A DNA stretch of 64,000 bases from Heterodontus francisci (lineage: Eukaryota). Under the pieces are notes generated by a model. It worked only from the letters and a program-made list of their open reading frames with translations, did not search any database and was not told the DNA's origin. Of this stretch, positions 19,002 to 58,262 are shown piece by piece. Numbering within the stretch: the stretch's first letter is position 1; every line of letters begins with the position of its first letter. The stretch covers positions 216,807,056-216,871,055 of the forward strand of contig NC_090371.1 in NCBI RefSeq assembly GCF_036365525.1, written 5' to 3'. Both the position numbers and the translations under genes were made by a program.

Positions 19002-19629
19002 CTATCCTTAAGCACTTCAAATCCTTTTTGTACCCAAACATTCTTCCAGCTCCTTTTTAAAGAAGTTAATCAACATAGCATTAGCATTAGTTGCCTTTGA
19101 TTGGAGCCTGATCCTCATATCTGTTACGCTGCATGAAAACATGTATATTTTAATCTTCAATTTCACTTGACACTTGTTAATTTTGCACTTCAGTCTTCTA
19201 ATCTTGCAATCACAGTCTAATTTAAAGCCGCAAATCAAAGATCTAGCATGTGTACCGGGACTAATAATCTCATACTCACTCGGACTTGTTCTGGCATTTT
19301 GATATCCCCTGACAATGTTGGTCATGGGGTCATTCTCCCTTTTCACTCTACTGCTCAGTTTTATTTTATCCCATCCAATAACCATTCGTACACAGTAATT
19401 CAAACACATTACATTTTATCAGTAATGGATTTAAGATACTCTCACTCAGACTATTAATAACTGCAAATTTTTGACTTGTTACATGTGCTTATTTTGCTAT
19501 GTTCTTTGCTGGACCATCATATGTACTATAACACTTGGAATGTCCTGAGGTTGTGAAAGACACTATATAAATCCAGGTCTTACTTTTCTTTTAATCCCAA
19601 CCATCCCTTAACTGCAGTCTCTAGCTGAA

Positions 19630-20385
19630 TTTTTTAAATTCTTTCATGGGATGCAGTCATCCCTGGCTAGGCCAACAGTTGTTGCCCATCCCGAGTTGCC
19701 CTTCAGAAAGTGGTGGTGAGCTGCCTTCTTGAACCATTGCAGTCCACCTGGTATAAGTAAACCCACAGTGCTGTTGGGGAGGGAGTTCCAGGTTTTGATC
19801 CAGCAACCGTGAAGGAAAGGTGATATAGTTCCAAGTCAGGATGGTGTGTGCCTTGAAGGGAAACTTGCAGATGGTGGTGTTCCCATGCATCTGCTGCACT
19901 TGGCCTTCTAGGTGGTAGAGTTTAGAAGGTGCTGTCAAAGGAGGCTTGGCGAGTTGCTGCAGTGCATCTTGTATATGGTACACACTGCTGCCACCATGCA
20001 TGGGTGATGGAGGGAATGAATGTTTAAGGTGCTGGATGGGGTGCCAATCAAGTGGGCTGCTTTGTTCTGATTGGTGTCAATCTTCTTGAGTGTTGTTGGA
20101 GCTGCACCCATCCAGGCAAGTGGAGAGTATTCCATCACACTCCTGATTTGTGCCTTGTAGATGGTGGACAGGTTTTGGGGAGTCAGGAGGTGAGTTACTT
20201 GCCAGAGAATTCCCAGCCTCTGACCTGCTCTTGTAGCCACAGTATTTATATGGCTACTCCAGTTCAGTTTCTGGTCAATGGTAATCCCCAGGATGTTGAT
20301 AGTGGGGTATTCAGCGATGAATGTCAAGGGGAGATGGTTAGATCCTCTCTTGTTGGAGATGGTAATTTCCTGGCACTTGTGTAGC
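19630..20385 (-). mobile_element. CR1-group LINE 3' fragment (same family as 5110-6356)
   Basis: ORF 19935..20327 ILGITIDQKLNW..YKAQIRSVMEYSPLAW. Confidence 0.85.
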
Positions 20386-27206: not shown

Positions 27207-28944
27207 ATGCTGTCAATGTGCCGTAAAATGCTCATTAGATTTGCCAAATTGTCTTTGATAGAGTTAGTCCCCTTTAATTTGGTCAAATATATCAAAACTT
27301 GGGTAAAAAACAATAAAATTACAGTTTCTCATATTAAGTAAATGGTAAAGTGCCTTACAGTGCCTGCTCAATCTCGGTGTCCCAGAACACTTCAGTCAAT
27401 GAAATAGTCCCTTTTGTTATTGTGCAAACACTATAAAACATTTCATGACTCGGTATTCACCCAGCTGCAAGGCAATTTACTGTAGTGATGCCTATCTCTA
27501 AAATGGGTTTCAACTCTATTTAATTACAAATGTATTGTGACTGATTAATGATGAGCAGTCTTTAAGTGTTACTTTATTAATAGTTACATATTTAAAGTGT
27601 GTACATTCCAGTATATTTCAATACCATCCAATGCTTTCTGGACCTGCCTACTGCAAGCTCAGCAGCTTTTTGTATATAGACTAACTCTCTGACCTTGACC
27701 GGTACAAGAGAGAATAATTATTCTTGATCATTGAAGTAATTAGGTTATTAGATTCCTCACAGCTGAAGACACTGTTTGATGATCCAGTTGCATCCGAGGA
27801 GGACAACAAATTATGGGGCCGATTTTAACCTGACCCACCCAGTGGAAATCGGGAGGGTGACCAGTTTAAATAGAGCTAGCTACTTTCCCATTCGCAACCC
27901 AATTCTAACTTTAACCAGCAGCATTCTGCAGGCAGCTGAGGCACCCAACTAAAGCGGGCAAGAAGCTGACCAATTTATACAAATAGGGGCCCTGTGATGT
28001 CAGTTGGATGCCAATGATATTTTAACTGGGATCTGTGCAGGGAGGTCACCGTGGCTTTACTGCCAGGCTGGAGCAGACTGGCAGCTGGTGGGAAGGATGA
28101 AGTAAGTGAAAAAATTATCTTTGTGGGACTAGGAAGAGCAGAAGTGCTCCTCAGACCTCACAAGTAAAATCACAGCCTTCCCCCACCTTCCCTCCCATAA
28201 AAGAAGCCTGAAGGTTGCAGGAGTAAGAAAAGACTATTTAAAAACATTTCCTATTTTTATACTGACATTTAAACCTATTATAGGCCAGGCAGTAACTTTT
28301 GCATCTGTACATTAGCCACATCCCTCTGTAATGTAGCAGCAGAAAGCACTTCATGAACTAAACACAAAGCAGAATAAGCAAACAGAATTTTATTAAACCC
28401 AAAGCTGTGATAATGAAAGTGTGTGTATATGTTAACGAGGATGTGTATTTACCTTAAATGTAAGAATGACCAAACTATAATGGTATTCACTGAAGTAAAG
28501 GTATGGCTGAAGGGTGCTGTTGAATGACAAGTAATGAGGTGGTTTTGTTCTCAGTAAAGAGCCACAGAACCCTGGCATGTTGTCTGCTGTAGGACTTGCC
28601 GGCCTTCAATCATCACTCTATATTAACTGAAGTAACTAGCCATTAGTGCTGCTGCTGTGTAATGCTGGCCTTGGGCTATTGGATTGCAGTTTGAAATTGC
28701 AGCCTCAATCTGTTGCTTGATCTTGTGTTCTCTCATTGGCCAAGATTCATGCAAGATTTTGGCTGGCATGCCTTGTGGAGCATTTCACAGCAGAGCAGTC
28801 CACCATCTTGGTGAGGAGAAAGGGAAGCAAGGAAAACTGAGCAGCACAACACTGATGCCAGAAAAGCCTCATCTCCTGTCATGGAACAGTGATGACAGCA
28901 ACTGTGGAGAAGCCTTTCGCCCAGACCATCATATTCTTCCAGCT

Positions 28945-29432
28945 AAAGGAGTAAGCATGGGGAGTAGCGAGATAAAGGAGTGAGCATGGGGAGTAGCGAG
29001 ATAAAGAAGTGAGCATGGGGAGTAGCGAGATAAAGGAATGAGTTTGGGGAGTAGCAAGATAAAAGAGTGAGTGTGGAGAGTAGTGAGATAAAGGAGTGAG
29101 TGTGGAGAGTAGTGAGATAAAGGAGTGAGTGTGGAGAGTAGTGAGATAAAGGAGTGAGTGTGGAAAGTAGTGAGATAAAGGAGTGAGTGTGGAGAGTAGT
29201 GAGATAAAGGAGTGAGTGTGGAGAGTAGTGAGATAAAGGAGTGAGTGTGGAAAGTAGTGAGATAAAGGAGTGAGTGTGGAAAGTAGTGAGATAAAGGAGT
29301 GAGTGTGGAAAGTAGTGAGATAAAGGAGTGAGTGTGGGAAGTAGTGAGATAAAGGAGTGAGTGTGGGAAGTAGTGAGATAAAGGAGTGAGTGTGGGGAGC
29401 AGCAAGATAAAGGAGTGAGTATGGGGAGTACC
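28945..29432. repeat. 29-bp purine-rich minisatellite (GAGATAAAGGAGTGAGTGTGGAGAGTAGT), about 16 units
   Basis: Tandem period of 29. Confidence 0.95.
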
Positions 29433-34534: not shown

Positions 34535-34681
34535 AGAAAGTCTTGCATTTATCTATCACTTTTCATGGCCTCAGGATGCCCAAAGTATTTACGATCAATT
34601 TTTAAAGTGTAGTCGGTGTTGTAATTGGGGAAACGCAGCAGCCAATTTGTGTACCACAAGCTCCCACAAACAGCAATGAAA
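34535..34681 (-). mobile_element. DeuSINE fragment interrupted by a LINE
   Basis: Deu-domain sequence stops at cagcaatg and resumes as aatgaccaga at about 35491. Confidence 0.65.
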
Positions 34682-35492
34682 TATCCAGGCTTGGGCTAAT
34701 AAGTGGCAAGTAACATTCGCGCCACACAATTGCCAGGCAATGACCATCTCCAACAAGAGAGAATCTAACCATCTCCCCTTGACATTCAATGGCATTACTA
34801 TTGCTGAATTCCCCCACTATCAACATCCTACGGGCGACCATTGACCAGAAATTGAACTGGAGTAGCCATATAAATACTGTGGCTACAGAGCAGATCAGAG
34901 GCTAGGAGTCCTGCGGCGAGTAACTCACCACCTGACTCCCCAAAACCTGTCCTCCAACTACAAGGCACAAGTCAGGAGTGTGATGGAATACTCTCCACTT
35001 GCCTGGATGGGCGCAGCTCCAACAACACTCAAGAAGCTCGACACCATCCAGAACAAAGCAGCCCACTTGATTGGCACCCCATCTACAAACATTCACTCAC
35101 TCCACCACTGACGCACAGTGGCAGCAGTGTGTACCATCTACAAGATGCACTGCAGCAACGCACCAAGGCTCCTTAGACAGCACCTTCCAAACCCGCGACC
35201 TCTACCAACTAGAAGGACAAGGGCAGCAAATGCATGGGAACACCACCACCTGCAAGTTCCCCTCCAAGTCACACACCATCCTGACCTGGAACTATATTGC
35301 TGCTCCTTCACTGTCACTGGGTCAAAATCCTGGAACTCCCTTCCTAACAGCTCTGTGGGTGTACCTACCCCAAATGGACTGCAGCAGTTCAAGAAGGCAG
35401 CTCACCACCACCTTCTCAAGGACAATTAGGGATGGGCAATAAATGCTGGCATAGCCAGCGATGCCCACATCCCATGAATGAATTAAAAAAAA
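34682..35492 (+). mobile_element. CR1-group LINE 3' fragment (same family as 5110-6356)
   Basis: YKAQVRSVMEYSPLAW; gggatgggcaataaatgctgg tail plus poly(A). Confidence 0.85.
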
Positions 35493-36010: not shown

Positions 36011-36734
36011 GTTGGATTCCATTCTTATTTGGACAAACAGGAAAACGACTTAATCACGCTTGAGCCCAATTCCTATGCCCTGCTGAAAAGCTAGGATTAG
36101 TTAAATCTCTTTTGATAGATCTTGCCACAAAAATAGAAGATTGAGATCTGTGACTTTGCACTCACTGATATTGATCTAGAATAACAAAGGCTTCTTTGCA
36201 TGCACGAGGGAATCAATTAAGATTTGGAATTTTTATACTTTTTTATCAAGTAATTAAAACAATTAACTTATCACAATTCTATGCTGAGTTTTGATTAGTT
36301 CAAAGAGAACACTCCAAGTGTGAAAGGCCAAATGAAAGATCAATTGGGGCAAAGCTCATGAATTTTTTTGCACCTTCTTTACCGTACTTACGGCATTTGT
36401 GGTGTTGTTTCAGCTCAAAGTAACATTTAGACATGCTTGCAGAAGCCTTGCTTCAACAAAATACTATTGATATGTTGACAATTAAAGCAAATCTTCTCAT
36501 TTTTTTGTTTACTCTGAAGGCGACAGTTATGAACTGCTTGTTAGACCATATGCGCTTCCATTGCTTTTTTATGACTTGAAGTGTTGTATGTGAATCTTTA
36601 TCCTGGAATGTTATGAAATGTTTGTGGAAAGCAGATCCAGAATAAAAATACAATTGACTTTTGTTAGTAATTCAGCTATGCTTGCATTGAATTTGCTTTT
36701 GTGATGATGCTGAAAGGAGAGGTCAGTTATCACC

Positions 36735-37109
36735 TATTTCCACCTCCGTAACATTGCCCGATTTCGCCCCTGTCTCAGCTCATCATGCCTTCAAGACCTT
36801 TAGACTTGACTATTCCAGTGCACACCTGGCTGGTCTCCCACATTCTACCTTCCATAAACTTGAGGTCATCCAAAGCTCTGCTGCCCATGTCTTAACTCAC
36901 ACCAAGTCCCGTTCCCCTGTCACCCCTGTGCTCACTGACCTACATTGGCTCCTGGTCAAGCAACGTCTTGATTTTAAAATTCTAATCCTTGCTTTCCAAT
37001 CCCTTCTTGGCCTCGTCCCTCCCTATCTCTGTAATATCCTGTAGCCACAAAACCCTCTAAGATACCTACGCGACTCTAATTCTGGCCCCTTGTGCATCCC
37101 TGATTTTAA
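36735..37109 (+). mobile_element. L2 LINE 3' part (left half, split by the Tx1 array)
   Basis: RLDYSSAHLAGLP..LHWLLVKQRLDFKIL. Confidence 0.85.
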
Positions 37110-38865
37110 TTTTTTTTTCCCAAAAATGTACTTTATTCACAAATATCTGTAAAAAATACATTACAAAACAGTTCAACAAAGCACCAAGCTGACATTCAAA
37201 GGAAAGTGCAAAGGAAATCAGTTTCCGTCAATACAGGAGTGAGTTGCCTCACAACCCTTCCATTCCATTTTTCATGCCATGTACATTTTACAGCCAACCC
37301 ATATTTGGTGTATACAGCCCGAGGGGTTTTCCATGGATCCAGCCCCTCAGTTCAGCTTGGTGGGGGGACCTTACACAGTGGTCTTTCCCCATTGAGCCTT
37401 TGCAGCGGCTGCCCTAAGCTTTAGTGCCTCCCTCAGCACGTAGTCCTGGACCTTGGAATGTGCCAGTCTGCAACATTCGGTCGTGGACAACTCTTTGCAC
37501 TGGAAAACCAGCAAGTTTCGGGCAGACCAAAGAGCGTCTTTCACCGAATTGATGGTCCTCCTGCAGCTGTTGATGTTTATCTCAGTGTGCGTACGTGGGA
37601 ACAGCCCGTGGAGCACAGACTCCTGTTTTACAGAGCTGCTTGGGATGAACCTCGACAAAAACCACCGCATCTCTTTCCACACCTGCTTTGCAAAGACACA
37701 TTCCAGAAGGAGGTGGGCAACTGTCTCTTCCCCACCACAGCCACCTCGAGGGCATTGTGCGGAGGGGGCGAGACTCCGGGCGTGCAGGAAGGATCTGACA
37801 GGAAGAGCCCTTCTCACCACCAGCCAAGCTACGTCTTGGTGCTTGATTAAAAGTTCTGGTGATGAGGCATTCTGCCAAATGACTTTGACGGTCTGCTCGG
37901 GGAACCATCCGACAGGATCCACCATCTCCTTTTACCGTAGGGCCTTGAGGACATTCCGTGCGGACCACTGCCTGATGGATTGGTGGTCAAAGGTGTTTTC
38001 CCGCAGAAACTGCTCCACGAAGGATAGGTGGTACGGCACCGCCCAACTGCATGGAGCGTTCCGCGGCAATGTGACCAGGCCCATCCTTCGCAACAACAGG
38101 GACAGATGGAACCTCAGCACGTAGTGATACTTGGTGTTTGCGTACTGGGGCTGTACGCACAGTTTGATGCAGCCGCACACGAAAGTGGTCATTGGGATGA
38201 GGGTGCGGTGGATACATTTTGCCAGCCCTTATCCAGAGGTTTGAACATCGTGTCCCTCCAGACCCGGTCCATTTTGGATCTCCAGATAAGGCGGAAAATG
38301 GCTCGGGTGACTGCCACAGCGCAGGAGTGGGGTATGGGCCAGACCTGCGCCACATACAGTAACAACGTGAGCACCTCGCACCTGATGACCAGGTTCTTAC
38401 CCACAATGGAGAGAGATCCCTGCCCCCACATGCTCAGTTTATGGTATATCCAGGTTAATCGCTCCTTCCAGGTTTTGGCGCACGCCCCAGCCCTTCCGAA
38501 CCATATCCCCAACACCTTCAGGTAGTCTGACCTGACGGTAAAGGGCTCAAAGGCCCGGTCAGCCCAGCTCCCAAAGAACATGGCCTCGCTCTTGCCGCGG
38601 TTCACTTTGGCTCCCGAGACCAGTTCAAACTGGTCACAGATACTCATCAGTCTGCGAGCTGACAGATCTGAGCAAAAGACAGCAACGTCGTCCATGTACA
38701 GGGAGATTTTTACCTGAGTGCCTCAGCTGCCTGGGATTGTCACCCCTCTTGAGCCCACATCCTTCCTAATGGTCTCATTAAAAGGTTTGATACAGCAAAC
38801 AAACAAGACAGACGAGAGAGGATAGCACTGTCTGTCTCTAGATTGGATCGGGAAACTTTCTGATT
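37110..38865 (-). mobile_element. Tx1-clade copy A, 5'-truncated and decayed
   Basis: YMDD; C-terminal CPRGGCGGEETVAHLLLEC; poly(A) at 37110-37118. Confidence 0.9.
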
Positions 38866-38867
38866 TC

Positions 38868-41800
38868 TTTTTTTATTTACAAAATATACTTTATTCATAA
38901 AAATCTGTAAAAAATACATTACAAAACAGTTCAAAACAGCACCAAGTCAACAATACAAACAGTGCGAAGGAGATCAGTTTCCTTCAATACAGGAGTGAGT
39001 TGCCTCACAACCCTTCCGTGTACTTTTTGCCATGTACTTTTTGCAGCAAACCCATATTTTCTGGATACAGCCCGAGGGGTTTCCATGGATCAAGCCCTTG
39101 AATTCACCTTGGTGGGGGGACCTTACCCTGTGGTCTTTCCCCATTGCACCTTTGCTGCGGCTGCCCCAAGCTTTAGTGCGTCCCTCAGCACGTAGTCCTG
39201 GACCTTGGAATGTGCCAGTCTGCAACATTCGGTCGTGGACAATTCTTTGCGCTGGAAAAGCAGCAAGTATCAGGCAGACCAAAGGGTGTCTTTCACCGAA
39301 TTGATAGTCCTCCAGCAGCAGTTGATGTTTATCTCAGTGTGCGTCCCTGGGAACAGCCCGTAGAGCACAGACTCCTGTGTTACAGGGCTGCTTGGATTGA
39401 AATTCAACAAAAACCACTGCCTCTCTTTCCACACCTGCATTGCAAAGACACATTCCAGAAGGAGGTGGGCAACCGTCTCTTCCCCACCACAGCCACCTCA
39501 AGGGCATTGTGCGAAGGGGGCGAGATTCCGGGCGTGCAGGAAGGATCTGATGGGGAGGGTCCTTCTCACCACCAGCCAAGCTACATCTTGGTGCTTGTTT
39601 GAAAGTTCTGGAGATGAGGCATTCTGCCAAATGACTTTGGCAGTCTGCTCGGGGAACCATCCGACCGGATCCATCATCTCCTTTTCCCGTAGGGCCTTGC
39701 GGACATTCTGTGCAGACCACTGCCTGATGGATTGGTGGTCAAAGGTGTTTCTCCGCAGAAACATTTTCACGAAGGATAGGTGGTACGGCACGGTCCAACT
39801 GGATGGAGCGTTCAGCGGCAATGTAACCAGGCCCATCCTTCCCAACACCGGGGACAGATAGAACCTCAGCACGTAGTGACACTTAGTGTTTGCATACTGG
39901 GGATCTACGCACAGCTTGATGCAGCCACACACGAAGGTGATCATCAGGATGAGGGCGACGTTGTCCCCAGCACCTTCAGGTAGTCTGACCTGACGGTGAA
40001 GGGGACAAAGGATCGGTCAGCACAGTTCCCAAAGAAAATGGCCTCACTCTTGCCGTGGTTAACTTTGGCTCCCGAGGCCAGTTCAAACTGGTTGCCAATG
40101 CTCATCAGTCTGCGCACAGACAGCGGAACCGAGCAGAAGACGGCGACGTCATCCATGTACAGGGAGGTTTTAACCTGAGTGCCTCCACTGCCTGGGATTG
40201 TCACCCCTCTTATGCTCGCATCCTTCCTAATAGACTCAGCAAAGGGTTCAATACAGCAAACAAATAAGACCGGGGAGAGAGGACAGCCCTGTCTGGCTCC
40301 AGATTCGATCGGGAAACTTTCTGATTCCCACCCATTGATTGAGACTGCGCTACTGATGTTTGTATAGAGCAGTTGGATCCAATTGCAGATTCCCTCCCCA
40401 AACCCCATTTTGGAAAGCACGTCCATCATGTAGGTGTGCGATATCCTGTCAAAAGCCTTCTCCTGGTCCAGGCTGATGAGGCAGGTGTCCACCCTCCTGT
40501 CCCGCACATAGGCGATTGTATCCCTGAGTAGCGCGAGACTATCAGAGATCTTCCTGCCAGGCACAGTACAGGTCTGATCGGGTGGATCACCAACTCCAGA
40601 GCAGACTTGACTCGACTGGCTATGACTTTGGACAGAATCTTGTAGTCGACATTAAGCAATGAGATGGGCCGCCAATTTCTGATTTCTGCTCTCTCCCCCT
40701 TCCGCTTGTAAATGAGGGTGATGATGCCTTTCCTCATGGATTCTGACATGCTGCCGGCCAGGAGCATACTCTCGTATGCTTCCAGCAGGTCCGGGCTGAC
40801 CCAGTCCCACAGGGCCGAGTGCAACTCGACCGGTAAGCTGTCGCTTCCAGGAGTTTTACTCATCTCGAAGGACTCGACGGCCTTTGTCAGCTCGTCCAGA
40901 GTTACCGGCTTGTCCAGTCTCTCCCTCCTGCTGTCATCTAAGACCTCTGTGATAGATGACAGGAAGGACTGGGAGGCTCTGCTGTCTGTGGGCTTCGCGT
41001 CATACAGTCCAGCATAAAAGGATTTGCTGATCCTTAGTATGTCGGACTGCGAAGACGTTACTGAGCCATCTTCTTCCTTCAGGCTGCTGATAACAGAGCT
41101 CTCTCTGTGTACATTTTGGAAGAAGTAACCCGAGCACGTCTGATCCTGCTCGATGGAGCAGACTCTGGACCGGAGGATGATCTTGGAGGCCTCCTTGGCA
41201 AAGAGCGAGGCCTGCTGGCTCTTCACCTCTTGGAGGTCCTCCTTGACCTCAACCCCCATTGACTGCAACCAGAGCAGATTTTGCATACTTTTCTGGAGTT
41301 GGGACATTTCCTTCTGTCTCTCTCTCGCCCTCTGAACACCTTTGTGGATGAAGAACTTCTTGATGTTCTCCTTAATCGCTTCCCACCAGTGAACTGGAGA
41401 CTCAAAGAGGGGTTTCACGGTCCTCCAACCTTTGTAATCCATTTTGAGTTCCTCAACGTTCTCTGGGGTTAGCAGTGTAGAATTGAGCTTCCACGTCCCT
41501 CTGCCAACCCGCTGGTCATCCTGTAAGTGACAGTCGGCCAGTAAGAGGCAGTGGTCGGAGAAGAACACCGGCTTGACGTCGGTGGATCCGACCGTGATGG
41601 GACAGGACACAAACAGGAAGTCAATCCTAGAACGGGCAGACCCGTCTGATCTTGACCATGTGTATCTGCGCTGCGCTCCGCCTGCAGGTTTGCTGAAGAC
41701 GTCGTGCAGTTTGGCATCTTTAACTGTTTCTATTAGGAATCTGGACATAGCGTTTGCTGTCGTCACTGCCGGATCGTCCAGCCGCATCGATGATGCAGTT

Positions 41801-42850
41801 CAAGTCACCACCTAGGATGACCGGCCTGGACGTTGCCAGCAGCAGTGGGTGCTGCTGGAAAACGGTCAGCCGCTCGCTGCGTTGTACCGGGGCGTACACG
41901 TTGATCAACCGGAGCGGAGCGTTGTTGTACATTACGTCTGCTACGAGTAGGCGACCGCCCACCACCTCCTTAACTTAGGAGATGGTGAAGTTACCTCCCC
42001 GCAGCAGAATACCCAGGCCGGAGGAACGGCAATCATTACCCCCTGACCAGATCGATGGCCCGTGGGACCACCATCGCGACCACTGCCTGTAGATGCTGAG
42101 GTGTGGTATTCCACACTCCTGCAGAAACAGTAGGTCGGCTTTGACCTTGGCGAAGTAATCCAAGGTTGAAACACATCGCGTAGTAGATTTAATGCTACGC
42201 ACATTAATGGAAGCAATCTTTACACCCATTTTTTTAAAGTTAGTTGTTGCTTCCCATACCATTTGTCCTTGCTAGTCCCAGTCCTTCGGGATGTTCCTGC
42301 ATACCCATTGTGTGAGCAAGCTGTTTCACAATAGTTGGGCTCAGAAACCCCTCCTGGTTTTTCATGCAGGGGTTGTTCCGCTGGGGTGACATTGGGGGGG
42401 ACTTGTAGGCAGCAAAGATTGGGTTATCCTCTGCTGCTTCCATCTGTTCCTCCTCAAAAACATCACTGCTCCCGGCTTCCCGGAGCTGAGGTGCGCCAGA
42501 CGTGTCTTTGCTCTCGGTGTCCCTGAGCTGAGATGCGTTGGCCACGTCGTTACGTGTGGCACTTTGGGGTTAGGGCACGCCGGGCCCATCACAGCTTCCA
42601 GTGCCCGGGGGCTGGGTGGCTTAATCTTCCATCTCCTTGGAGTTCTGCTGCCTCTTTTGAAGGGGCTGTCGTTCCAGCACTCCCCTGTCCAGTGAAGAGG
42701 AGTTGTTGCAGTCTGATTCAGAAGATAGCCTCCTCTTGCCACTGGTTTGGGTTCCGCTTTGGGATGTTTTTTCTTTGTGGTTTTCCTCTGGACCACTTGC
42801 CACTGACCTGTTTGTCCATTTGCTGCCTCCTCCTCCATTGATTCTGTCTG
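38868..42850 (-). mobile_element. Tx1-clade copy B, 5'-truncated in ORF1, with an internal deletion
   Basis: APE (SINVRS, FFSDH), RT (QGCPLSP, YMDD); about 300 bp missing at 39964 relative to copy C. Confidence 0.92.
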
Positions 42851-43131
42851 AGGATGTCGCTGTGTTTTTTTTTATTTCCAAAATATACTTTATTCATAAA
42901 AATCTGTAAAAATTACATTGCCAAACAGTTTCCAAACAGCACCAAAAAATGCAAACATTGCAAGGGAGATCAGTTTCCTTCAATACGGTCATGGGTTTCT
43001 TCCCAACCCTTCTGTTTCACAATTGTCATGTCAATTACAGTTTTACATTTACAGCAATTGAGAATATTAACGATACAGTTCGAGGGGATTCCCATGGATC
43101 CAGCCCCTCAGTCCAGCTTGGTGGGGGAACC

Positions 43132-46100
43132 TTACACTGTGGTCTTTCCCCATTGAGCCTTTGCTGCGGCTGCCCCAAGCTTTAGTGCTTCCCTCAGCAC
43201 GTAGTCCTGGACCTTGGAATGTGCCAGTCTGCAACATTTGGTGGTGGACAACTCTTTGCGCTGGAAGACCAGCAAGTTTCGGGCAGACCAAAGGGCGTCT
43301 TTCACCGAATTGATAGTCCTCCAGCAGCAGTTGATGTTTGTCTCGGTGTGCGTCCCTGGGAACAGCCCGTAGAGCACAGACTCCTGTGTTACAGAGCTGC
43401 TTGGGATGAACCTTGACAAAAACCACTGCATCTCTTTCCACACCTGCTTTGCAAAGGCACATTCCAGGAGGAGGTGGGCGACCGTCTCTTCCCCACCACA
43501 GCCAACGCGGGGGCACTGTGCGGAGGGGGCGAGACTTCGGGTGTGCATGAAGGATCTGACGGGGAGGGCCCTTCTCACCACCAGCCAAGCTACGTCTTGG
43601 TGCTTGTTTGAAAGTTCTGGTGATGAGGCATTCCGCCAAATGACTTTGACGGTCTGCTCGGGGAACCATCCGACATGATCCACCGTTTCCTTTTCCCGTA
43701 GGGCCTTGAGGACATTCCGTGCAGACCACTGCCTGATGGACCGGTGGTCAAAGGTGTTTTCCCGCAGAAACTGCTCCACGAAGGATAGGTGGTACGGCAC
43801 CGCCCAACTGCATGGAGCGTTCCGCGGCAATGTGACCAGGCCCATCCTTCGCAACACCGGGGACAGATAGAACCTCAGCACGTAGTGACACTTGGAGTTT
43901 GCGGACTGGGGATCTACACACAGCTTGATGCAGCCGCACACGAAGGTGATCATCAGGATGAGGGCCACGTTGGGTACATTTTTCCCGCCCTTGTCCAGAG
44001 ATTTGAACATCGTGTCCCTCCGGACCCGGTCCATTTTAGATCCCCAGACGAAGCGGAAAATGGCTCGGGTGACTGCCACGGCGCAGGAGTGGGGTATGGG
44101 CCAGACCTGCGCCACGTACAGCAACAACGTGAGCGCCTCGCACCTGATGACCAGGTTCTTACCCACAATGGAGAGAGATCGCTGCCCCCACATGCCCAAC
44201 TTTTGTCGTACTTTGGCTACTCGCTCCTCCCATGTTTTGGTGCACGCCCCGGCCCTTCCGAACCATATCCCCAGCACCTTCAGGTAGTCTGACCTGACGG
44301 TGAAGGGGACAAAGGATCGGTCAGCCCAGTTGCCAAAGAACATGGCCTCGCTCTTGCCGTGGTTAACTTTGGCTCCCGAGGCCAGTTCGAACTGGTCGCA
44401 GATGCTCATCAGTCTGCGCACGGACAGCGGATCCGAGCAGAAAACGGCGACGTCATCCATGTACAGGGAGGTTTTGACCTGAGTGCCTCCACTGCCTGGG
44501 ATTGCCACCCCTCTTATGCTCGCATCCTTCCTAATAGACTCAGCAAAGGGTTCAATACAGCAAACAAACAAGACCGGGGACAGAGGGCAGCCCTGTCTGA
44601 CTCCAGATTTGATCGGGAAACTTTCAGATTCCCACCCGTTGATTGAGACTGCGCTACTGATGTTTGTGTAGAGCAGTTGGATCCAATTGCAGATTCCCTC
44701 CCCAAACCCCATTTTGGAAAGCACGTCCATCATGTAGGTGTGCGATATCCTGTCAAAAGCCTTCTCCTGGTCCAGGCTGATGAGGCAGGTGTCCACCCTC
44801 CTGTCCCGTACGTAGGCGATCGTATCCCTGAGTAGCGCGAGACTATCAGAGATCTTTCTGCCGGGTACAGTACAGGTCTGATCGGGGTGAATCACCAACT
44901 CCAGAGCAGACTTGACTCGACTGGCTATGACTTTGGACAGAATCTTGTAATCAACATTAAGCAGTGAGATGGGTCGCCAATTTCTGATTTCTGCCCTCTC
45001 CCCCTTCTGCTTGTAAATGAGGGTGATGATGCCTTTTCTCATGGATTCTGACATGCTGCCGGCCAGGAGCATACTCTCGTATACTTCCAGCAGGTCCGGG
45101 CCGACCCAGTCCCACAGGGCCGAGTACAACTCGACCGGTAAGCCGTCGCTCCCGGGAGTTTTACTCGTCTCGAAAGACTCGACGGCCTTTGTCAGCTCGT
45201 CCAGAGTTAGCAGCTTGTCCAGTCTCTCCCTCCTGCTGTCATCTAAGACCTCTGTGATAGATGACAGGAAGGACTGGGAGGCTCTGCTGTCTGTGGGCTT
45301 CGCGTCATACAGCCCAGCATAAAAGGATTTGCTGATCCTTAGTATGTCGGACTGCGAAGACGTTACCGAGCCATCTTCTTCCTTCAGGCTGCTGATAACA
45401 GAGCTCTCTGTGTGTACCTTTTGGAAGAAGTAACGCGAGCACGTCTCATCCTGCTCGATGGAGCGGACTCTGGACCGGAAGATGATCTTGGAGGCCTCCT
45501 TGGCAAAGAGCGAGGCCTGCTGGCTCTTCACCTCTTGGAGGTCCTCCTTGACCTCAACCCCCATTGACTGCAACCGGAGTAGATTTGGCATAATTTTCTG
45601 GAGTCAGGACACTTCCCTCTGTCTCTCTCTCACCTTCTGAACACCTTTGTGGATGAAGAACCTCTTGATGTTCTCCTTAATCGCTTCCCACCAGTGAACT
45701 GGAGACTCAAAGAGGGGTTTCATGGTCCTCCAACCATTGTAATCCCTTTTGAGTTCCTCAACGTTCTCTGGGGTCAGCAGTGTCGCATTGAGCTTCCACG
45801 TCCCTCTGCCCACCCGCTGGTCGTCCTGTAAGTGACAGTCGGCCAGTAAGAGGCAGCGGTCGGAGAAGAACACCGGCTTGACGTCGGTGGATCCGACCGT
45901 GACAGCACGGGACACAAACAGGAAGTCAATCCTGGAACGGGCAGACCCGTCCGATCTTGACCATGTGTATCTGCGCTGCGCTCCGTCTGCAGGTTTGCTG
46001 AAGACGTCGTGCAGTTTGGCATCTTTAACTGTTTCTATTAGGAATCTGGACGTAGCGTCCAGTTTGCTGTCGTCACTGCCGGATCGTCCAGCCGCATCGA

Positions 46101-46539
46101 TGATGCAGTTGAAGTCACCGCCTAGGATGACCGGCCTGGACGTCGCCAGCAGCAGTGGGAGCTGCTGGAAGACGGTCAGCCGCTCGCTGCGTTGTACCGG
46201 GGCGTACACGTTGATCAACCGGAGCGGAGCGTTGTTGTACATCACGTCTGCTACGAGGAGGCGGCCGCCCACCACCTCCTTAACTTCGGAGATGGTGAAG
46301 TTACCTCCCCGCAGCAGAATACCCAGGCCGGAGGAACGGCAGTCATTACCCCCCGACCAGATCGATGGCCCGTGGGACCACCATCGCGACCACTGCCTGT
46401 AGGTGCTGAGGTGTGGTATTCCACACTCCTGCAGAAACAGTAGGTCAGCTTTGACCTAGGCAAGGTAATCCAAGGTTGAAACACATCGCGTAGTAGATTT
46501 AATGCTACGCACATTAATGGAAGCAATTCTTACACCCAT
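43132..46539 (-). pseudogene. Tx1 ORF2 (endonuclease, RT, C-terminal zinc knuckle), about 1135 codons, two in-frame stops
   Basis: Starts MGVRIASINVRS; ORFs 45604..46275 and 43132..45591 are in frame; stops TAG near 46457 and TGA at 45604. Confidence 0.92.
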
Positions 46540-46552
46540 TTTTTACTAAAAA

Positions 46553-48073
46553 TTAGTTGTTGCTTCCCATACCATTTGTCCTCGCTAGTCCCAGTCCTTC
46601 GGGATGTTCCTGCATACCCATCGTGTGCGCAAGCAGTTTCACGTTGGTTGGGCTCAGAAACCCCTCCTGATTTTTCATGCAGGGCTTGTGCCGCTCGGGT
46701 GACATCGGGGGGGTCTTGTAGGCAGAGAGCATTGGGTTGTCTTCAGCTGCTTCCATCTGTTCCTCCTCGAAAACATCACAGCTCCCGGTCTCCCGGAGCT
46801 CAGGTGCGCCAGACGTGTCTTTGCTCCCTGTGTCCCGGAGCTGAGATGCGTTGGCCACGTCATTACGTGTGGGGCATTGGGGTTGGGGCACGCCGGGCCC
46901 ATCACAGTTTCCAGTGCTCGGGGGCTGGGATGCTTTATCATCCATCTCGGAGTTCTGCCGCCTCTTTTGAAGGGGCTGTCATTCCAGCATTTCCCCATCC
47001 AGTGAAGAGGAGTTGTTGCAGTCTGATTCAGAAGAGAGCCTCCTCTTGCCACTGGTTTGGGTGGTGGCTTTGGGATGTTTTTTCTTTGTGGTTTTCCTCT
47101 GGACCACTTGCCACTGACCTGTTTGTCCATCTGCTGCCTCCTCTTCCATTGATTCTGTCTGTGGAGGAGGGGTTTCCGGGCGCTGGGTAGGTGCTGGGTC
47201 GTTGGTTTCAGCTGCCTCCCCTTCCTTCTCAGGTTGAAGTTCCTCACTGCGGAGAAGGTTGCTGGTCTCCTTTCGAACAGCGGACGCCTTCGTCGAACCT
47301 TCTCCCGGCCTTTCCTTGGACCTTGCCGCCTGAGCATAGCTGAGGCAACGTTTGGGGCAGGTCTTGTAGAGATGGCCTGCCGCACCGCACAAGTTGCAAC
47401 ACTTAGTCTGCTTACAGTCCTTGGTCTGATGGCCTTCCTCCTTGCAGTTCTTGCAAACAACCGTGCTGCAGTTGGCTGCCATGTGACCAGATTTGCCACA
47501 GGTGCGGCAAACTCTGGGCTACCCAGCGTAGACCAAGAAGCCTCGACTTCCCCCGATAGCGAAGCTGGAGGGAGGGTGGATGATGGCTCCACTGGGATCT
47601 ACCTTCAAGGTCACCTTGACCTGCCGCTTACTGGTCCAGATCCCAAAGGGGTCCTTGACATCAGTGCTGCTGCCGGCCACCTCGACGTACCTGGCGAGAA
47701 AGGTGAGTACATCCACCACAGGAACATGGGGGTTGTCGAGGTGAATCGTCACCACCCGGTCCCGTTGTAACGGAAGCGTGAAGAGTGGCTCCGCTGTGAG
47801 GATCGACAGTGGCGCCCGGTCCCCTTTCTCCTTGAACGCCTTCAGGAACTTGATGCATCCCGCCACGTTCCGGAACGTCACGTCGAAGTATCCACTGCTG
47901 GGGAAATCCTGCAGGCAGAAGACGTCCGTCGCTTGAAATCCGCAGCAATCGAAGAGAATTTTCTTGATGAAGAAGGTGCGATCGACCGGTGCATCTCCTT
48001 CCTTGTCCTTCACGACCACCCGAAAGGTGTTGCGCACTCCCTGGCCCGAAGCTCGAAAATTGGTTATAGCCAT
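46553..48073 (-). pseudogene. Tx1 ORF1 (ZCCHC3-like N-terminus, 3 CCHC knuckles), about 506 codons, two in-frame stops
   Basis: CRTCGKSGHMAANC, CKNCKEEGHQTKDC, CNLCGAAGHLYKTC; ORFs 47519..48106, 46979..47482 and 46553..46945 share one frame. Confidence 0.9.
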
Positions 48074-48136
48074 TTTACTCAAAGCTTCCCCAGGATCAAA
48101 AGGCAATGATCATGGTCTCTTCTCAATCAAATAAGC

Positions 48137-48186
48137 ACTGATAAGAAAAGATACTACACTTGATCTTAGCCAAAAGGCCGAGAAGC
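48137..48186 (-). ncRNA. RNU2: U2 snRNA 5' fragment (nt 4-53) forming the head of Tx1 copy C; not an intact gene
   Basis: Reverse complement GCTTCTCGGCCTTTTGGCTAAGATCAAGTGTAGTATCTTTTCTTATCAGT matches vertebrate U2 (recalled consensus) at 49/50, including the GTAGTA branch-pairing motif. Confidence 0.93.
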
Positions 48187-48195
48187 TGTGTTTTC

Positions 48196-49140
48196 TTTTT
48201 TTTTTATTTCCAAAATATACTTTATTCATAAAAATCTGTAAAAATTACATTGCCAAACAGTTTCCAAACAGCACCAAAAAATGCAAACATTGCAAGGGAG
48301 ATCAGTTTCCTTCTATACTGTCATGAGTTTCTTCCCAACCCTTCCGTTTCACAATTGTCATGTCAATTACAGTTTTACATTTACAGCAATTGAGAATATT
48401 AACGATACAGTTCGAGGGGTTTCCCATTGATCCAGCCCCTCAGTCCAGCTTGGTGGGGGAACCTTACACTGTGGTCTTTCCCCATTGAGCCTTTGCTGCG
48501 GCTGCCCAAGCTTTAGTGCATCCCTCAGCACGTAGTCCTGGACCTTGGAATGTGCCAGTCTGCAACACTCGGTGGTGGACAACTCTTTGCGCTGGAAGAC
48601 CAGCAAGTTCCGGGCAGACCAAAGGGCGTCTTTCACCGAATTGATAGTCCTCCAGCAGCAGTTGATGTTTGTCTCGGTGTGCGTCCCTGGGAACAGCCCG
48701 TAGAGCACAGACTCCTGTGTTACAGAGCTGCTTGGGATGAACCTTGACAAAAACCACTGCATCTCTTTCCACACCTGCTTTGCAAAGGAACATTCCAGGA
48801 GGAGGTGGGCGGCCGTCTCTTCCCCACCACAGCCAACGCGGGGGCACTGTGCGGAGGGGGCGAGACTTCGGGTGTGCATGAAGGATCTGACGGGGAGGGC
48901 CCTTCTCACCACCAGCCAAGCTACGTCTTGGTGCTTGTTTGAAAGTTCTGGTGATGAGGCATTCCGCCAAATGACTTTGACGGTCTGCTCGGGGAACCAT
49001 CCGACAGGATCCACCGTTTCCTTTTCCCGTAGGGCCTTGAGGACATTCCGTGCAGACCACTGCCTGATGGACCGGTGGTCAAAGGTGTTTTTCCGCAGAA
49101 ACTGCTCCACGAAGGATAGGTGGTACGGCGCCGCCCAACT
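48196..49140 (-). mobile_element. Tx1-clade copy D, 5'-truncated and young
   Basis: Nearly identical to the 3' end of copy C; 19-bp TSD GCCGAGAAGCTGTGTTTTC at 48177-48195 and 49141-49159. Confidence 0.93.
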
Positions 49141-49149
49141 GCCGAGAAG

Positions 49150-49368
49150 CTGTGTTTTCAGTCACCTAAGCTTCAAGCTCTGAAATGTTCTCTTTTTGGA
49201 TCCTGCTTTCCTCTTTTAAGACACTCTTTAAAACTCACCTCTTTTCGTTATCTGACCTAATATCTCCTTTGTGGCTTGGTGTCATAATTTGTTTTATAAT
49301 GCTCCTGTAAAGCACCTTGGAATGTTTTATTATGTTAAAGGTGCTAAATAAATATATGTTGTTGTTGT
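49150..49368 (+). mobile_element. L2 3' end (right half, split by the Tx1 array)
   Basis: ttcagtcacctaagc..aagctctgaaat..aaaggtgcta..(gtt)n tail continues the L2 from 37109. Confidence 0.8.
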
Positions 49369-50249
49369 TATCTAACAGATTCATTGAAACAATAGCTCAG
49401 GATTTGCATATCACAGCATGCCCCATTAGTTAGATTTATTCCCTTACCCATCAGCCCGAACCTTTTTTGACCTGTAAATTGTTGGACTTCACAATTCATG
49501 GGGTATGTCTTTCTCACCACAAGTTGGATGATTTTACATATTAATAACAGCAAGCACCATTAAACTTGCCATTATTTTGGCAGAAAAAGTCTTGGCCAAT
49601 ATTTTACCATTCTACATTGAGGTTGCAGAACTCATACATTTAGAATTCTGTGCGCATTTGAACCGGGAATCGCTGGTCCTAACTGCTCTTTTTGCATTAC
49701 CACAATTATAATCAAGGCCCAATTTTAACTCACTCAATACCCATTCTCTTATACAGAGTTAAAATTAGGCCTTCCAAGTGTGAGTTTGTATCATAGATTA
49801 TACCTGCTGCCAAGAACTCATTCAACAGGCGACAGGTGGTGGGAAATCTAGTTCAAGGGAAGGTGGCTAATTTAAGGGAAGTGACCACTGTGGCAAACAA
49901 AAAATTATTGATGGACAAAAGAGCCATCTCACTTGCAAGTCCTATTGGGAAAGGATCTAGGAGAAGCACTAGAACAGGCTTTGGAGATATACAATAGACA
50001 ATGTTACTAAAGGGAAGCACCAGGGTAATAATTCAGTAATAGCACAAACATTGATCATATATTGGGCATGAGATATTACTATACTTAATTTTTAAAAAAT
50101 TTCAGAGTTTTCTCAGATAGTGCAGTGCAAGATAACAGCAGATTGAAGGACAGCTGAGTTAATGCAGCAGAAATTGTTGGTTATCGTATTATTGGCTATT
50201 GTGTATAATTGGTGAGAACTATTATGGCATTGTGCAGGTGAGGTACTTA

Positions 50250-53612: not shown

Positions 53613-53769
53613 TCGATAATTCTTTCCAGTGAGTAACCTCAATGGCATTGGTACTTACTGTTCAACAAAACTATGTTTGAATAAGTCCCTCAAAAAAGCA
53701 ATAAATATGAAATTATAATAAGCCATAAGCAAAGCCTGAACAGGGTTGGAATCACAAACGTGATTTTAA

Positions 53770-56700
53770 AAATTATTTCATGGATTGTGAGCATCGCTGA
53801 CAAGGTCAGCATTTGTTACCCAGCCCTAATTGCCCTTGAGAAAGTGGTGGTGAGCCACCTTCTTGAATTGTCGCAGTCCATCTGGTGCGGGTACATCCAG
53901 AGTGCTGTTCGGGATGGAGTTCCAGGTTTTTGAGCCAGCCATAGTGAAGGAGCGGCAATATAGATCCAGGTCATAGAATCACAGGATGCTGTGTGGCTTG
54001 GAGGGCAATTTGCAAATGGTGGTGTTCCCATACATCTGCTGCCCTTATCCTTTTAGGTGGTAAAGGTTGTGAGCTTGGAAGGTGCTATCGAAGGAGGCTT
54101 GGTGAGTTGCTGACATGCATCTTGTATATGGTACACACTGCTGCCACTATGCGCCTGTGGTGGAGGGAGTGAATGTTTAAGGTGCAGGATGGGATGCTGA
54201 TCAAACGGGCTGCTTTGTCCTGGATGGTGTGAGTGTCTTGAATGCTGTTGGAGCTGCACCATCCAGGCAAGTGGAGAGTATTCTATCACACTCTGGATTT
54301 GTGCCTTGTAGATGGTGGGCACACTTTGGGAAGTCAGGAGGTGAGTTCCTCAGCACAGAATTCCCAGCCTCTGACCTTCTCTTGTAGCTGCAGTATTTAT
54401 ATGGCTGGTCCAGTTAGGTTTCTGGCCAATGGTGTAAAGTAGTGTAATGGCGACCTCACCTTTAAGAAACGTTATCTTTAAGAGACCAGGTCACTGATGC
54501 AACTGATGACATCAAAATAAGGAGGAGACCCCATTTTGAGTGACACACTGAACACATGCCCTGCAGATAGAACATGCAAACAAGCGTGGAAAAGACCTGG
54601 ACCTGAGCAATATGTAAAGCTCATGCAATGTAGATAAGTAAGATAATAAATAGTGTCTATGTTAAATCAAAATATAAAGCCTGAGGCTATCATTTAATGA
54701 AGCCTTAAGAACACAGCACAACACAAATTTTTTTTCTGGCAACGTGGAAATAAAAGAGAAAAAAAGACAAGGCTCAGAAGCATCCAAGGGCAACAAACAA
54801 ACACAGGGGTAAACAAAAAAGTTGAGAGGAAACCAGGACTGGATCAGAGAGAAAACATGGACTGGAAAAGAGAGAAAACCTGAGTTGGAACAGAAAAAAA
54901 AGGCTTTACGGGATGGCGAACCACACAGACAACCCAGGAACATACAAAAGACTTGCATTGACAATTCCAGATTTAAGCAAAAAAAAAATCACCATGTATG
55001 TGCAACAATTGCCAGTCTTTCCAGCTTTCACAGAGATGGACAGCAACTCAGGGCCACACTGGAGCAAATTGCTCGTAAGATTCGAATGCCTAATTGTGTC
55101 ACTCGATATCAATACACCGCAAAGCGAGAGAGCATTACTCCTACATTATGCTGAACCAAAAATTAACAATATCTTCGATATACTCACTGACACTGGAACT
55201 GACAATGATTATGATGCAGTGAAGAATGCTCTAACAAGATATTTTCAATGGAGGACAAATCCTCACTTTCAAATGTATGTCTTCAGACAAGCAAAACAAG
55301 ATAAGTGCGAGACCCTATGACCACTATGTGACGAAACTCAGAAGTCTAAGCCAGAATTGTAACTTAACAGACGCGGACAATGAAATCATCTCCCAGATCA
55401 TTATGACTTACCAATCACCAAGACTAAGAAGAAAAGATCTTAGAGAGGGCTAATCGTTAAACTTGCTAAGTGTCACTCGATATTGCCAGAACACTGGAAG
55501 CCAGCGAAAGACAAGCCAAAGTCTTAGAAGGAAAAGGGGCATATAACCTACGACAAAAAACTCCTGAGGCCAGGTCAGGATTGTTGACACATCTGTGAAT
55601 GCCTCAAGAGGAAGATTTCACCAGAGAAACCCACCAAACGCAAGGACACAGAGGAAACCCAGAGAAAGGTCCAAGACATGTCAAGGATGATCAAGACAGA
55701 GATTATAATCACATCACGTTCAAACATGCAGTCATTGTGGTGGTGCATATCCCCACTATAAAACTTGTCCAGCAAGAGGAAAGAAGTGTAAAGCCTGTGG
55801 AAAAATGGGACATTTCACAAGAGTATGCCAACCGAAGACTACAGAAGACATTAATAAAGTTAAATGCCAGAAGGAAGATTACATAGTCGCAGCACTAGAG
55901 AAGATTTTTGTAGCTCACAACCACAAGTACCAGCACCTGCCCATGTGTGATGTATTCATCGGCAATTCAACTATCTTTGCAGTAATTGACTCAGGAGCAA
56001 CAGTCAACATAATGGATGCCCCGACATTCCACAAGTTACAGAGAAAACAGAAACTGCAATTGAATAAGCCTATATCTAAAATCTTCTCCTATGGATCAGA
56101 TACCCCTCTACTAGTCCTAGGGATGATCTAAGTTACTCTCAAATCCTCCCGTGGGTCCACATGTCAGACTGAGTTCCATGTTGTAGACTCAAGCAAAGGA
56201 AATCTGCTAAGTTTCGAAACTGGCAGCGAATTGAAACTGATCACAACTAACACCGTCAGAGGACAGAACTCTTCGAAGACAGGAGACATCAAGAGGAAGT
56301 ATCCACAGCCACAATTCATACCTACACAACCCTACACGCACTCAACAGTAGGCTTGAGGGATAGAGACAAGAGTCAAAAACAGAGGATAAAGACGTGTGC
56401 AGACGGACAGATACACGCAAAAGATAGTGAGATAAAAGATTCTTCTTTAAAAGAGACAAAGTCCTGGTTCAGCAAGAGAAAACTTTGAAAGTTAGCTCAC
56501 ATTTGACCCAAGAGTGCTTACGTTAGTTCAGAGAAAAGGAAGCATGATCATAGCGAAGAGAAGAAACTATATTGTGAAGATAAATGTAATCTTCTTCAAA
56601 AGAGTCAATGCTAAAACACTTCCAGAAGACAGTGACAAAGACAACTTCAATGACATCACACCTGCGACATCTAAAGAAGCAGCTCAGCTCAATCAAGCAC

Positions 56701-58262
56701 AGCCAAGCTCGATACTGCAAGATCCACAAGGAAGGTCATTGAAACCTCATCGATTACCTGTCTGATTTAAAGACTATATCATGCATCGTTGATGATGGGA
56801 GCCAGGCAGAAAAAGGTCTATTGTTGAGAGTGATGCGCCTGAATCCTCTTCTTTCCAAGTTTTCAAACTTCAGTCCAACTGAGTTTTGTTCAATGTAATG
56901 CACGATTAAATAGCTAGAGAGAGCAATTGTTAACCTTTAAAGGGGGAAACTTTAAATCTAAAAGAAGGGGGTAATATAATTTAGTGTAATGGTGACCTCA
57001 CCTTTAAGAAACCTTTCCTTTAAGAGACTTATGCAACTGATGATATCATCATACATATATAAGCAGGGGACACCATTTTGAGAGATGCTCTGCACACATG
57101 ACCTGCAGACAGAATACACACACCAGTGTGGTAAAGACCTGATCCTGAGCAAAGCTTAGAGCTCATGCAATGTAGATATGTAAGATAATAAATAGTGTTT
57201 GTGTTGAATCTGAATATAAAGCCTACAGTTATCGTTTAATGAAGACATAAGAACACAGCACAGCACTACAAATGGTAACCCCAGCACGTTGATGGTGGGG
57301 TATTGAGCGAATGTAATGCCATTGAATGTCAAGGGAGATGGTTGGATTCCCTCTTGTTGGATATGGTCATTGCCTGGCACTTGTGTGGTGTGAATGTTAT
57401 TGCCAATTAGCAACGCAAGCTTGAATGTTGTCAGGTCTTGCTGCATGTGAACAAGAACTGCTTCAGTATCTGAGGAGTTGTGAATGGTGCTGAACATTGT
57501 GCAATCATTAGCAAACATCCCCACTTCTGACCTTACGATGGAGTGAAGGTCATTGTTGAAGCAGCTGAAGATGGTTGGCCTAGGACACTATCCTAAGGAA
57601 CTCCTGCAGTGATGTCCTGGGCCTTAGATATTTGGCATCCAAAAATGACAACCATCTTCCTTTGTACTAGGTATGACTCCAACTAATGGAGAGTTTTCCC
57701 CTGATTCCCATTGACTTCACTTTTGCTAGGTATCCTGGATGCCAGACTCAGTCAAATGCTGCCTTGATGTCAAGGGCAGTCACTCTCACCTCACCTCTTG
57801 AGTTCAGCTCTTTTGTCCATGTTTGGATGAAGGTTGTAATGAGATCTGGAGCTGAGTGGTCCTGGCGGAACCTAAGCTGACCATCGGTGAGCAGGTTCTT
57901 GCTGAGTAACTGCTGCATGATAGCGCTGTTAATGAGACTTCCCATCACTTTGCTGATGATTCAAAGTAGATTGATGCGGTGGTAATTGGCGAGATTGTAT
58001 TTCTCCTGCTTTTGTGGACAGGACATACCTGGGCACTTTTCTACATTGTCGGGTAGATGCCAGGGTTGTTGCTGTACTGGAACAGCTTGGTTGGGGCACG
58101 GCTAGCTCTGGGGCACAAGTCTTCAGTACTACAGCTGGGATGTTGTTAGGGACCATAGCCTTTGCTGTATCCAATGCCTTCAGCCATTTCTGGATATCAC
58201 GGGGAGTAAATTGAATTGGCTGAAGACTGGCATCTGTGATGCTGGGGACCTCAGGAGGAGGC
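53770..58262 (-). mobile_element. CR1-group LINE (family of 5110-6356) split by an LTR element
   Basis: ALDIKAAFD, MFANDC, LKTCAPELA, YKAQIQSVIEYSPLAW; sequence is continuous across 54432/57271. Confidence 0.85.
54433..57270 (+). mobile_element. Internally deleted Gypsy LTR element (Mag/K02A2.6-like)
   Basis: LTRs 54433-54725 and about 56975-57270; 5-bp TSD AATGG; PBS-like tggcaacgtgga; PPT aaaagaaggggg; gag RALLLHYA, knuckle [14 protein letters not shown], protease IDSGATVNI; no RT. Confidence 0.88.

Follow-up and report, generated by a model that had tools for sequence, protein, structure and literature searches.

A stretch of 64,000 nucleotides of Heterodontus francisci (contig NC_090371.1, positions 216,807,056 to 216,871,055; hereafter the window) was analysed around a stack of long interspersed elements (LINEs) that interrupts the 3' tail of an old L2-like LINE. 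The inserts are minus-strand copies of the Tx1 clade that occupy 37111-49142, whereas the L2 tail lies on the plus strand, the inserts being antisense to it. Self-BLAST of the window revealed four mutually similar minus-strand copies (A, B, C and D), with 3' ends at 37110, 38865, 42865-42869 and 48197. The flanks, at 36731-37110 and 49149/49204-49369, both align to another L2 copy in the window with 73-76% identity; the label L2 itself is one that we take from the initial annotation, made by a model from the letters of this sequence. These alignments support its description of four abutting copies on one strand that hold the two halves of an L2 tail 12.0 kb apart. Its count of four copies at one site was only partly upheld: self-BLAST does return four similar copies, but five segments have to be distinguished, since B is a chimera of two parts (B1 and B2), and two target sites were used instead of one. 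The features of the locus are listed below (ORF, open reading frame; RT, reverse transcriptase; snRNA, small nuclear RNA; TSD, target-site duplication; UTR, untranslated region).

36731-37110, plus strand: old left L2-like 3' region, 73-75% identical to the L2-like copy at 12181-11557 (the comparator L2); ends in site 1
37100-37110: site 1, a T-rich motif at the end of the left L2 part
37111-38866, minus strand: copy A, truncated 5' within the RT, with poly(A) at 37111-37119 and an AB-type 3' UTR; decay greatest of all copies
37330-38099, minus strand: low-divergence tract inside A, with 3% private change versus 11% outside
38860-38866, no strand: 7-bp repeat of 37100-37106 at the 5' junction of A, 6 nt of which also match the element (microhomology)
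38868-39963, minus strand: B1, 1.1 kb from the 3' end of a copy of AB type, poly(A) included; decay intermediate
39964-42854, minus strand: B2, 2.9 kb of a C-like subfamily from the ORF1 C-terminus to the RT, without poly(A)
42855-42868, plus strand: L2-derived spacer, which is site 2 and contains one copy of the 10-bp TSD of C
42869-48186, minus strand: copy C, a full-length 5.3-kb Keno-related Tx1 LINE
43132-46539, minus strand: ORF2 of C, with APE endonuclease (PF03372, E 5e-13), RT (PF00078, E 1.2e-38) and zf-RVT (PF13966, E 5.5e-11)
46553-48073, minus strand: ORF1 of C, with two ZCCHC3-type RNA-binding domains and zinc knuckles (PF23057, PF23058, PF00098)
48137-48186, minus strand: U2 snRNA head of C, which matches model positions 4-53 except for one mismatch; a leader of 63 nt comes next
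48177-48195 and 49141-49159, no strand: the two copies of the TSD of D, 19 bp and 100% identical, the first covering the 5' junction of C
48196-49142, minus strand: copy D, 0.95 kb, 5'-truncated, with a CD-type 3' UTR; the last inserted
49149-49369, plus strand: right L2-like tail part, 76% identical to the comparator L2

Segments of the stack

Pairwise divergence between the copies ranges from 11.9% (A-B) and 11.6% (A-C) through 6.9% (B-C) to 1.7% (C-D), D departing from C at 16 of 942 nt and by a 1-nt deletion. Two types of 3' UTR were recognised, one in A and B and the other in C and D, and 47 of 926 four-way columns split the copies in this same way. The differences in length, divergence and 3' UTR subtype reported in the initial annotation were thus confirmed. 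Poly(A) is present at four 3' ends. Copy A has two stops in ORF2 and about 11% private changes at both of its ends.

Copy C is free of frameshifts, and translation revealed two premature stops in each of its ORFs. Its head matches the Rfam model of U2 (RF00004; 56.6 bits, E 3.2e-9; gathering score 46) and was the single U2 match in 36500-50000; U2 5' sequence therefore heads the one full-length copy at the locus (1/1). Both the U2 head and the full length of C were absent from the initial annotation.

Copy B is composite: B1, at its 3' end, is older, and B2, which resembles C and lacks poly(A), is younger. B1 differs from C by 11.1% and has an A-type UTR, whereas B2 differs from C by 5.3%, and the two are joined with a 295-bp offset relative to C. 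At three-way informative sites, B sided with C in 39 of 54 cases in B2 versus 36 of 106 in the coding part of B1 (p 5e-6), the switch point lying at the gap or at most ~110 bp 3' of it. Private changes also differ between the two parts (44/838 in B1 versus 8/360 in B2, p 0.02); those of B1 are distributed as 14/16/14 over codon positions 1/2/3 in the 838 nt, and B2 carries three frameshifting gaps. A single copy with a simple internal deletion was rejected on the change in divergence and grouping across the joint. Differences between B2 and C show a third-position bias (24/21/54 over the three codon positions; 14/15/36 without CpG, p 0.0008), which argues for the origin of B2 from another master and rules out that it was duplicated or converted from C. 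A deletion or an ectopic recombination event that later joined B1 to B2 would have removed the 5' part of B1, the 3' end of B2, a TSD copy and 6-13 bp of L2, so that the lost poly(A), the absent TSD and the missing L2 bases would be accounted for together by a single event.

Junctions and order of insertion

The 19-bp TSD of D includes ~10 nt of the U2 head of C, which indicates that D inserted after C, at the 5' junction of C. An origin of D by DNA duplication of the 3' end of C was rejected, because the 3' flank of D is the 5' junction of C, with the 19-bp TSD. C is itself bounded by a 10-bp TSD in L2-derived DNA (42859-42868 and 49149-49158). The longest flanking direct repeats measure 19 bp for D, 10 bp for C, 7 bp for A, 5 bp for B and 3 bp for B1, and in 3000 random draws matches of at least 7 bp arose in 2.9% and of at least 10 bp in 0.3%. 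By junction, a TSD is present between D and C and between C and B2, marginal between B1 and A, and absent between B2 and B1; the 7-bp repeat at 38860-38866 is a possible remnant of the TSD of A. When the flanks were aligned to the comparator L2, the nick of A and that of C and D were found to be separated by 26 nt in L2 coordinates, and 6-13 bp of L2 were missing. The spacer 42855-42868 together with the right flank also aligns to the comparator L2, with a score attained by none of 5000 shuffles.

According to the initial annotation, each TSD regenerates the target, and the copies are independent insertions that re-use it. This renewal is directly visible in the step from C to D, and both parts of the proposal hold for C and D, with their TSDs of 10 and 19 bp. 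For A, with its weak 7-bp repeat, and for B they are plausible but unproven, as no TSD flanks B and junctions would have been lost to later recombination or deletion. Target renewal is therefore clear for the last step, likely for the preceding one and presumed for the older ones.

Decay falls in the order A > B1 > B2 > C~D, with the youngest copies at the 5' side. At codon positions 1 and 2, private changes amount to 30/314 (9.6%) in the upstream part of A, 30/558 (5.4%) in B1, 3/240 (1.2%) in B2 and 13/798 (1.6%, lineage changes included) in C, and in 670 coding nt C has 2 and D has 5. Departures from an outgroup protein are more frequent in B2 (29/584) than in C (12/572, p 0.010). The low-divergence tract of A contains 21 private changes in 760 nt, compared with 76 in 687 outside it (0/300 shuffles as extreme), and probably derives, to judge from the sequence, from gene conversion or a mosaic template. 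An order in which B1 is older than A was abandoned after this mosaic tract had been recognised. The decay level of the tract is close to that of B2, and the lost 3' part of B2 might, speculatively, have been the conversion donor.

Origin of the stack and rival explanations

The stack is a real insertion hotspot. Under uniform insertion, the probability of three more insertions within 30 bp is 4.5e-9 at one copy per 10 kb and 5.6e-7 at one copy per 2 kb, both densities being assumed. No further ORF2 copy of the family was found in the window, all eight tblastn high-scoring segment pairs (8/8) falling within 37374-49140.

The stack was probably formed by a Keno-related, U2-headed Tx1 lineage of cartilaginous fish that inserted four or five times, antisense, in one old L2 tail at two T-rich sites. 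Insertion would have proceeded by target-primed reverse transcription from an RNA that, when full length, would start with the U2 snRNA piece, and the insertions would be spread over a long period and come from at least three subfamily variants. Each insertion would leave two copies of the target, of which the one at the 5' junction alone would retain bases on both sides of the nick. Since only this 5'-side duplicate would keep an intact target, the next copy would be placed 5' of the last and the stack would grow one way. A and then B1 would have entered site 1, and B2, C and D site 2. No adaptive "safe haven", as envisaged in the initial annotation, is needed, and a single locus lends it no support; any motif-preferring LINE that makes TSDs gives the same stack.

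Several observations weigh against repeated insertion at renewed sites. The stack is one locus, with junctions as assembled and no read support; the right flank was present in four runs (one sample, one study) at 0.96-0.98 of the sampled words, but these matches constitute no independent support, three being marked as a possible source. A TSD was sought for B and none was found (longest repeat 5 bp), and the candidate for A is marginal, since repeats of its 7 bp arise in 2.9% of cases by chance. The site motifs also occur unoccupied in the other 51.6 kb of the window (10 and 2 occurrences), so that the hotspot is not explained by a short motif alone. As for the order of A and B1, within the middle tract of A this copy appears younger than B1 (20 versus 36 private changes, p 0.044), and amino-acid departures give no ordering (22/203 versus 19/199, p 0.74). 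Differences between A and B1 favour no codon position (27/25/29) and are not enriched in the 3' UTR (p 0.37), a pattern that DNA-level duplication of one old copy would also give. Finally, the private counts of B2 and C tie (8 versus 7) in their 360-nt overlap with A, and the amino-acid and CpG measures differ about twofold by region within C itself.

Family-wide targeting would give a different cause for the hotspot while being compatible with the TSD mechanism. The lineage would have shifted from U2 genes to a fixed position of the L2 3' tail, as Tx1-Mar did to Mariner-N4, a shift that we consider doubtful although it is the strongest of the alternatives. The stack would then be an extreme instance of behaviour found throughout the genome. 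In its favour, different subfamilies inserted at two separate sites of a single L2 tail, in every case antisense, the T-rich motif of site 1 is also found in the comparator L2, and the precedent likewise involves two regions in one target transposable element (TE) (PMC4494074). However, the window contains two L2 copies that extend across the site, one of which is empty, and the T run of site 2 is absent from the comparator L2 and may be a local mutation. The wider proposal, that the Keno lineage of sharks and rays abandoned the U2 gene, retained the U2 piece as a fixed head and was retargeted to a defined spot of the L2 3' tail, is equally tentative. If a preference for L2 tails were true genome-wide, it would mean that a single endonuclease lineage had changed its target from a conserved RNA gene to another LINE. 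Such retargeting would make the element a LINE that parasitises another, very abundant LINE, its one-way stacks recording the succession of subfamilies, with ectopic recombination inside them.

Somewhat less probable is an origin from fewer insertions. One old copy would have been duplicated in tandem at the DNA level to give A and B1, through 6-7 nt of microhomology shared by the L2 flank and ORF2; in addition or instead, the B1-B2 chimera would result from a template switch during a single insertion, accompanied by target-site truncation. C and D are still true insertions under this explanation. The microhomology at the 5' junction of A fits it, as do the even codon-position spread and lack of UTR excess between A and B1 and the blunt, offset joint of B1 and B2 without poly(A). 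Template switch and target-site truncation have, moreover, been described in the group (PMC4494074). Against it, outside its low-divergence tract A has about two to four times the private changes of B1 (22 versus 10 in 206 nt; 13 versus 3 in 112 nt), and the 3' UTRs of A and B1 are separated by clustered indels. B1 is also more decayed than B2 (p 0.009-0.02), so that a single event fits only if the template was an old dead copy.

Local re-insertion, with D and perhaps others as daughters of a neighbouring full-length copy, is unlikely. C is indeed full length and 98.3% identical to D, but it has 5 private changes without counterpart in D over 926 columns, which any daughter event must predate. 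An origin of C and D from the same master fits the data equally well, whereas A, B1 and B2 represent other subfamily variants.

Even less credit can be given to a safe haven maintained by selection, in which stacks would be tolerated in repeat-rich neutral DNA with no insertion bias. The window is repeat-rich, and 11 of the longer ORFs outside the stack, when scanned, showed no host protein domain (10 without match, 1 with a zinc knuckle), but tolerance cannot produce base-pair adjacency and the other 52 kb of similar DNA lack any copy of the family. Misassembly of dispersed copies into one array is the least probable explanation: repeats that are 94-98% identical over 1-3 kb, at junctions known as assembled and without read support, could favour it, yet the copies differ by 1.7-12%, and the exact nested TSDs of D and C and the L2 halves in register would not be expected from an assembler.

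Other features were observed elsewhere in the window. Direct repeats of ~850 bp with 87.7% identity (14406-15244 and 18139-19002) enclose a minus-strand ORF (16435-17478) with a weak zinc-knuckle match (E 0.0009), and from this sequence arrangement 14406-19002 is possibly a decayed long terminal repeat element. Minisatellites were found at 3235-4689 (20-bp unit, 73 times) and 28944-29430 (29-bp unit, 17 times). A dispersed repeat of ~700 bp, with four to five copies in both orientations and 77-85% identity, lies at 5101-6355, 19629-20385, 34680-35492, 53763-54433 and 57271-57948.

Family placement and comparison with known systems

The Tx1 assignment made in the initial annotation is supported by Pfam domains and by the grouping of the RT with named Tx1 elements. 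APE and RT in ORF2, zinc knuckles in ORF1, poly(A), and TSDs for C and D were all found, as expected for Tx1. The proteins closest to those of C belong to a skate-containing cluster (72-75% identity), followed by whale shark (56-72%), amphibians (45-49%) and teleosts (36-40%). In an RT tree of 47 rows, from which two short rows had been dropped and in which L1, Kibi, Koshi and Dewa references were not included, C formed a clade with the Danio "transposon TX1 149 kDa protein" and BAD04856 (support 100/99). BAD04856 is presumably KenoFr1, judging from its accession neighbourhood. For the Keno labels, the accession neighbourhood was taken from PMC4889948 and PMC4746887.

A metagenome scan for relatives was limited to the best 80 of 516 confirmed stretches, all 80 of which were probed for U1/U2, 10 scanned with Rfam and 18 offered to the tree. 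No close relative was found among these 80 (0/80), best-segment identity being 28-47%. One of them, L002, is a true Keno: U2 nt 1-26 is found at its 5' end, U2 resumes at nt 38 immediately after its poly(A), and its ORF2 is 79% identical to Takifugu BAD04856. In a second RT tree (38 rows, midpoint root, quick method), C joined the clade of this U2-flanked Keno with a Shimodaira-Hasegawa-like approximate likelihood ratio test (SH-aLRT) value of 99, and the U2-flanked L018 fell outside that clade, on deep branches with weak support.

The target of Keno is placed at U2 snRNA nt 38/39 in PMC6136364 and PMC4640811. U2 from nt 38/39 was sought downstream of the poly(A) ends of the stack, and none of the four adjoins it (0/4). 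This excludes Keno sensu stricto, with the element being Keno-related and behaving as an off-target Keno relative. Its U2 head would go back to a master copy that had inserted into a U2 gene, or be a template-switch addition; the former is suggested by the extension of the head ~15 nt beyond the Keno site, as a 5' flank plus TSD would give. A 5-nt word is common to the published Keno target, the SINEU-3 TSD and site 1, with 3/5 or 4/5 positions at site 2, but its distance to the nick is inconstant and it represents a weak lead.

Further snRNA-associated elements were noted among the metagenome loci. L001, in the Keno clade, has a U2 nt 1-26 head (66-91) and poly(A) (~5850) followed by non-U2 DNA, and is an off-target Keno from another animal; off-target U2-headed copies are therefore not peculiar to the lineage of the stack. 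L018 is a distant Tx1 with both a U2 head (107-133) and a U2 3' flank (5851-5977), placed outside the vertebrate clade in the tree. L006 is a Tx1-like LINE with U1 snRNA nt 1-33 upstream (23-55) and, after its poly(A), U1 starting at nt 19 (6060-6205), which by its sequence looks like a U1-gene-specific insertion with a TSD of ~15 nt. U1-like sequence adjoins the element also in L004, L024 and L026. A U1-targeting LINE is absent from the available part of the 2015 listing in PMC4640811, and a literature search on Tx1 with U1 snRNA returned no title on a U1-targeting Tx1.

Both the re-use of a site preserved by its TSD and Tx1 elements that carry a U2 head and target TEs have been published, and the stack is a further example. 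No paper on Keno in cartilaginous fish or on Tx1 nested in another LINE was found in a search that barely covered subscription papers and Repbase reports and is weak evidence of absence, and no paper was found on tandem Alu insertion via the L1 endonuclease upstream of a TSD. With the stack, the Keno-related Tx1 elements that carry snRNA heads gain a representative from a cartilaginous fish. Compared with Keno itself (Keno_Tn AB111948, KenoDr1, Keno-1_SSa and L002), C shares the APE-RT ORF2, the CCHC ORF1, the RT clade and a U2 5' piece, but lacks a poly(A) end adjoining U2 nt 38/39 and has ~39-40% protein identity to the teleost group. Its head is U2 nt 4-53, whereas those of L001, L002 and L018 are nt 1-26/27.

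The closest parallel is Tx1-Mar/SINEU of crocodilians (e.g., the U2-headed Tx1-11_Crp), which in PMC4494074 comprise Keno-related Tx1-Mar families with U1- or U2-derived 5' heads that favour two regions of a Mariner, one TE type in >20% of the flanks of a family being the criterion there. As in the stack, copies lie inside another transposon at two regions, tandem copies (SINEU-3) enclose a TSD, and both TSDs and target-site truncations occur. The host is a Mariner there and an L2-like LINE tail here, and the likeness is one of description, any preference for the L2 tail being seen at this one locus. The tandem TE dimers of R1, jockey and the P element (McGurk and Barbash, bioRxiv 10.1101/158386) are similar in that the TSD preserves the target and allows further insertion, different 5' truncations together with a junction TSD mark double insertions, and head-to-tail order and junction deletions are found as in the stack. 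The copies of the array likewise show distinct 5' truncations and sequence variants. In contrast with those dimers, the stack has four or five members of differing age and subfamily, one-way growth and no sign of expansion by unequal exchange, and shows, in a vertebrate, a TSD-preserved site that was used repeatedly, where the order of events can be read and decay dates the series of subfamilies. Retrotransposons also cluster at fixed positions of older TEs in the human TE-in-TE hotspots (PMC2836564); those hotspots are a genome-wide statistic over many loci, whereas the stack is one locus that was re-used.

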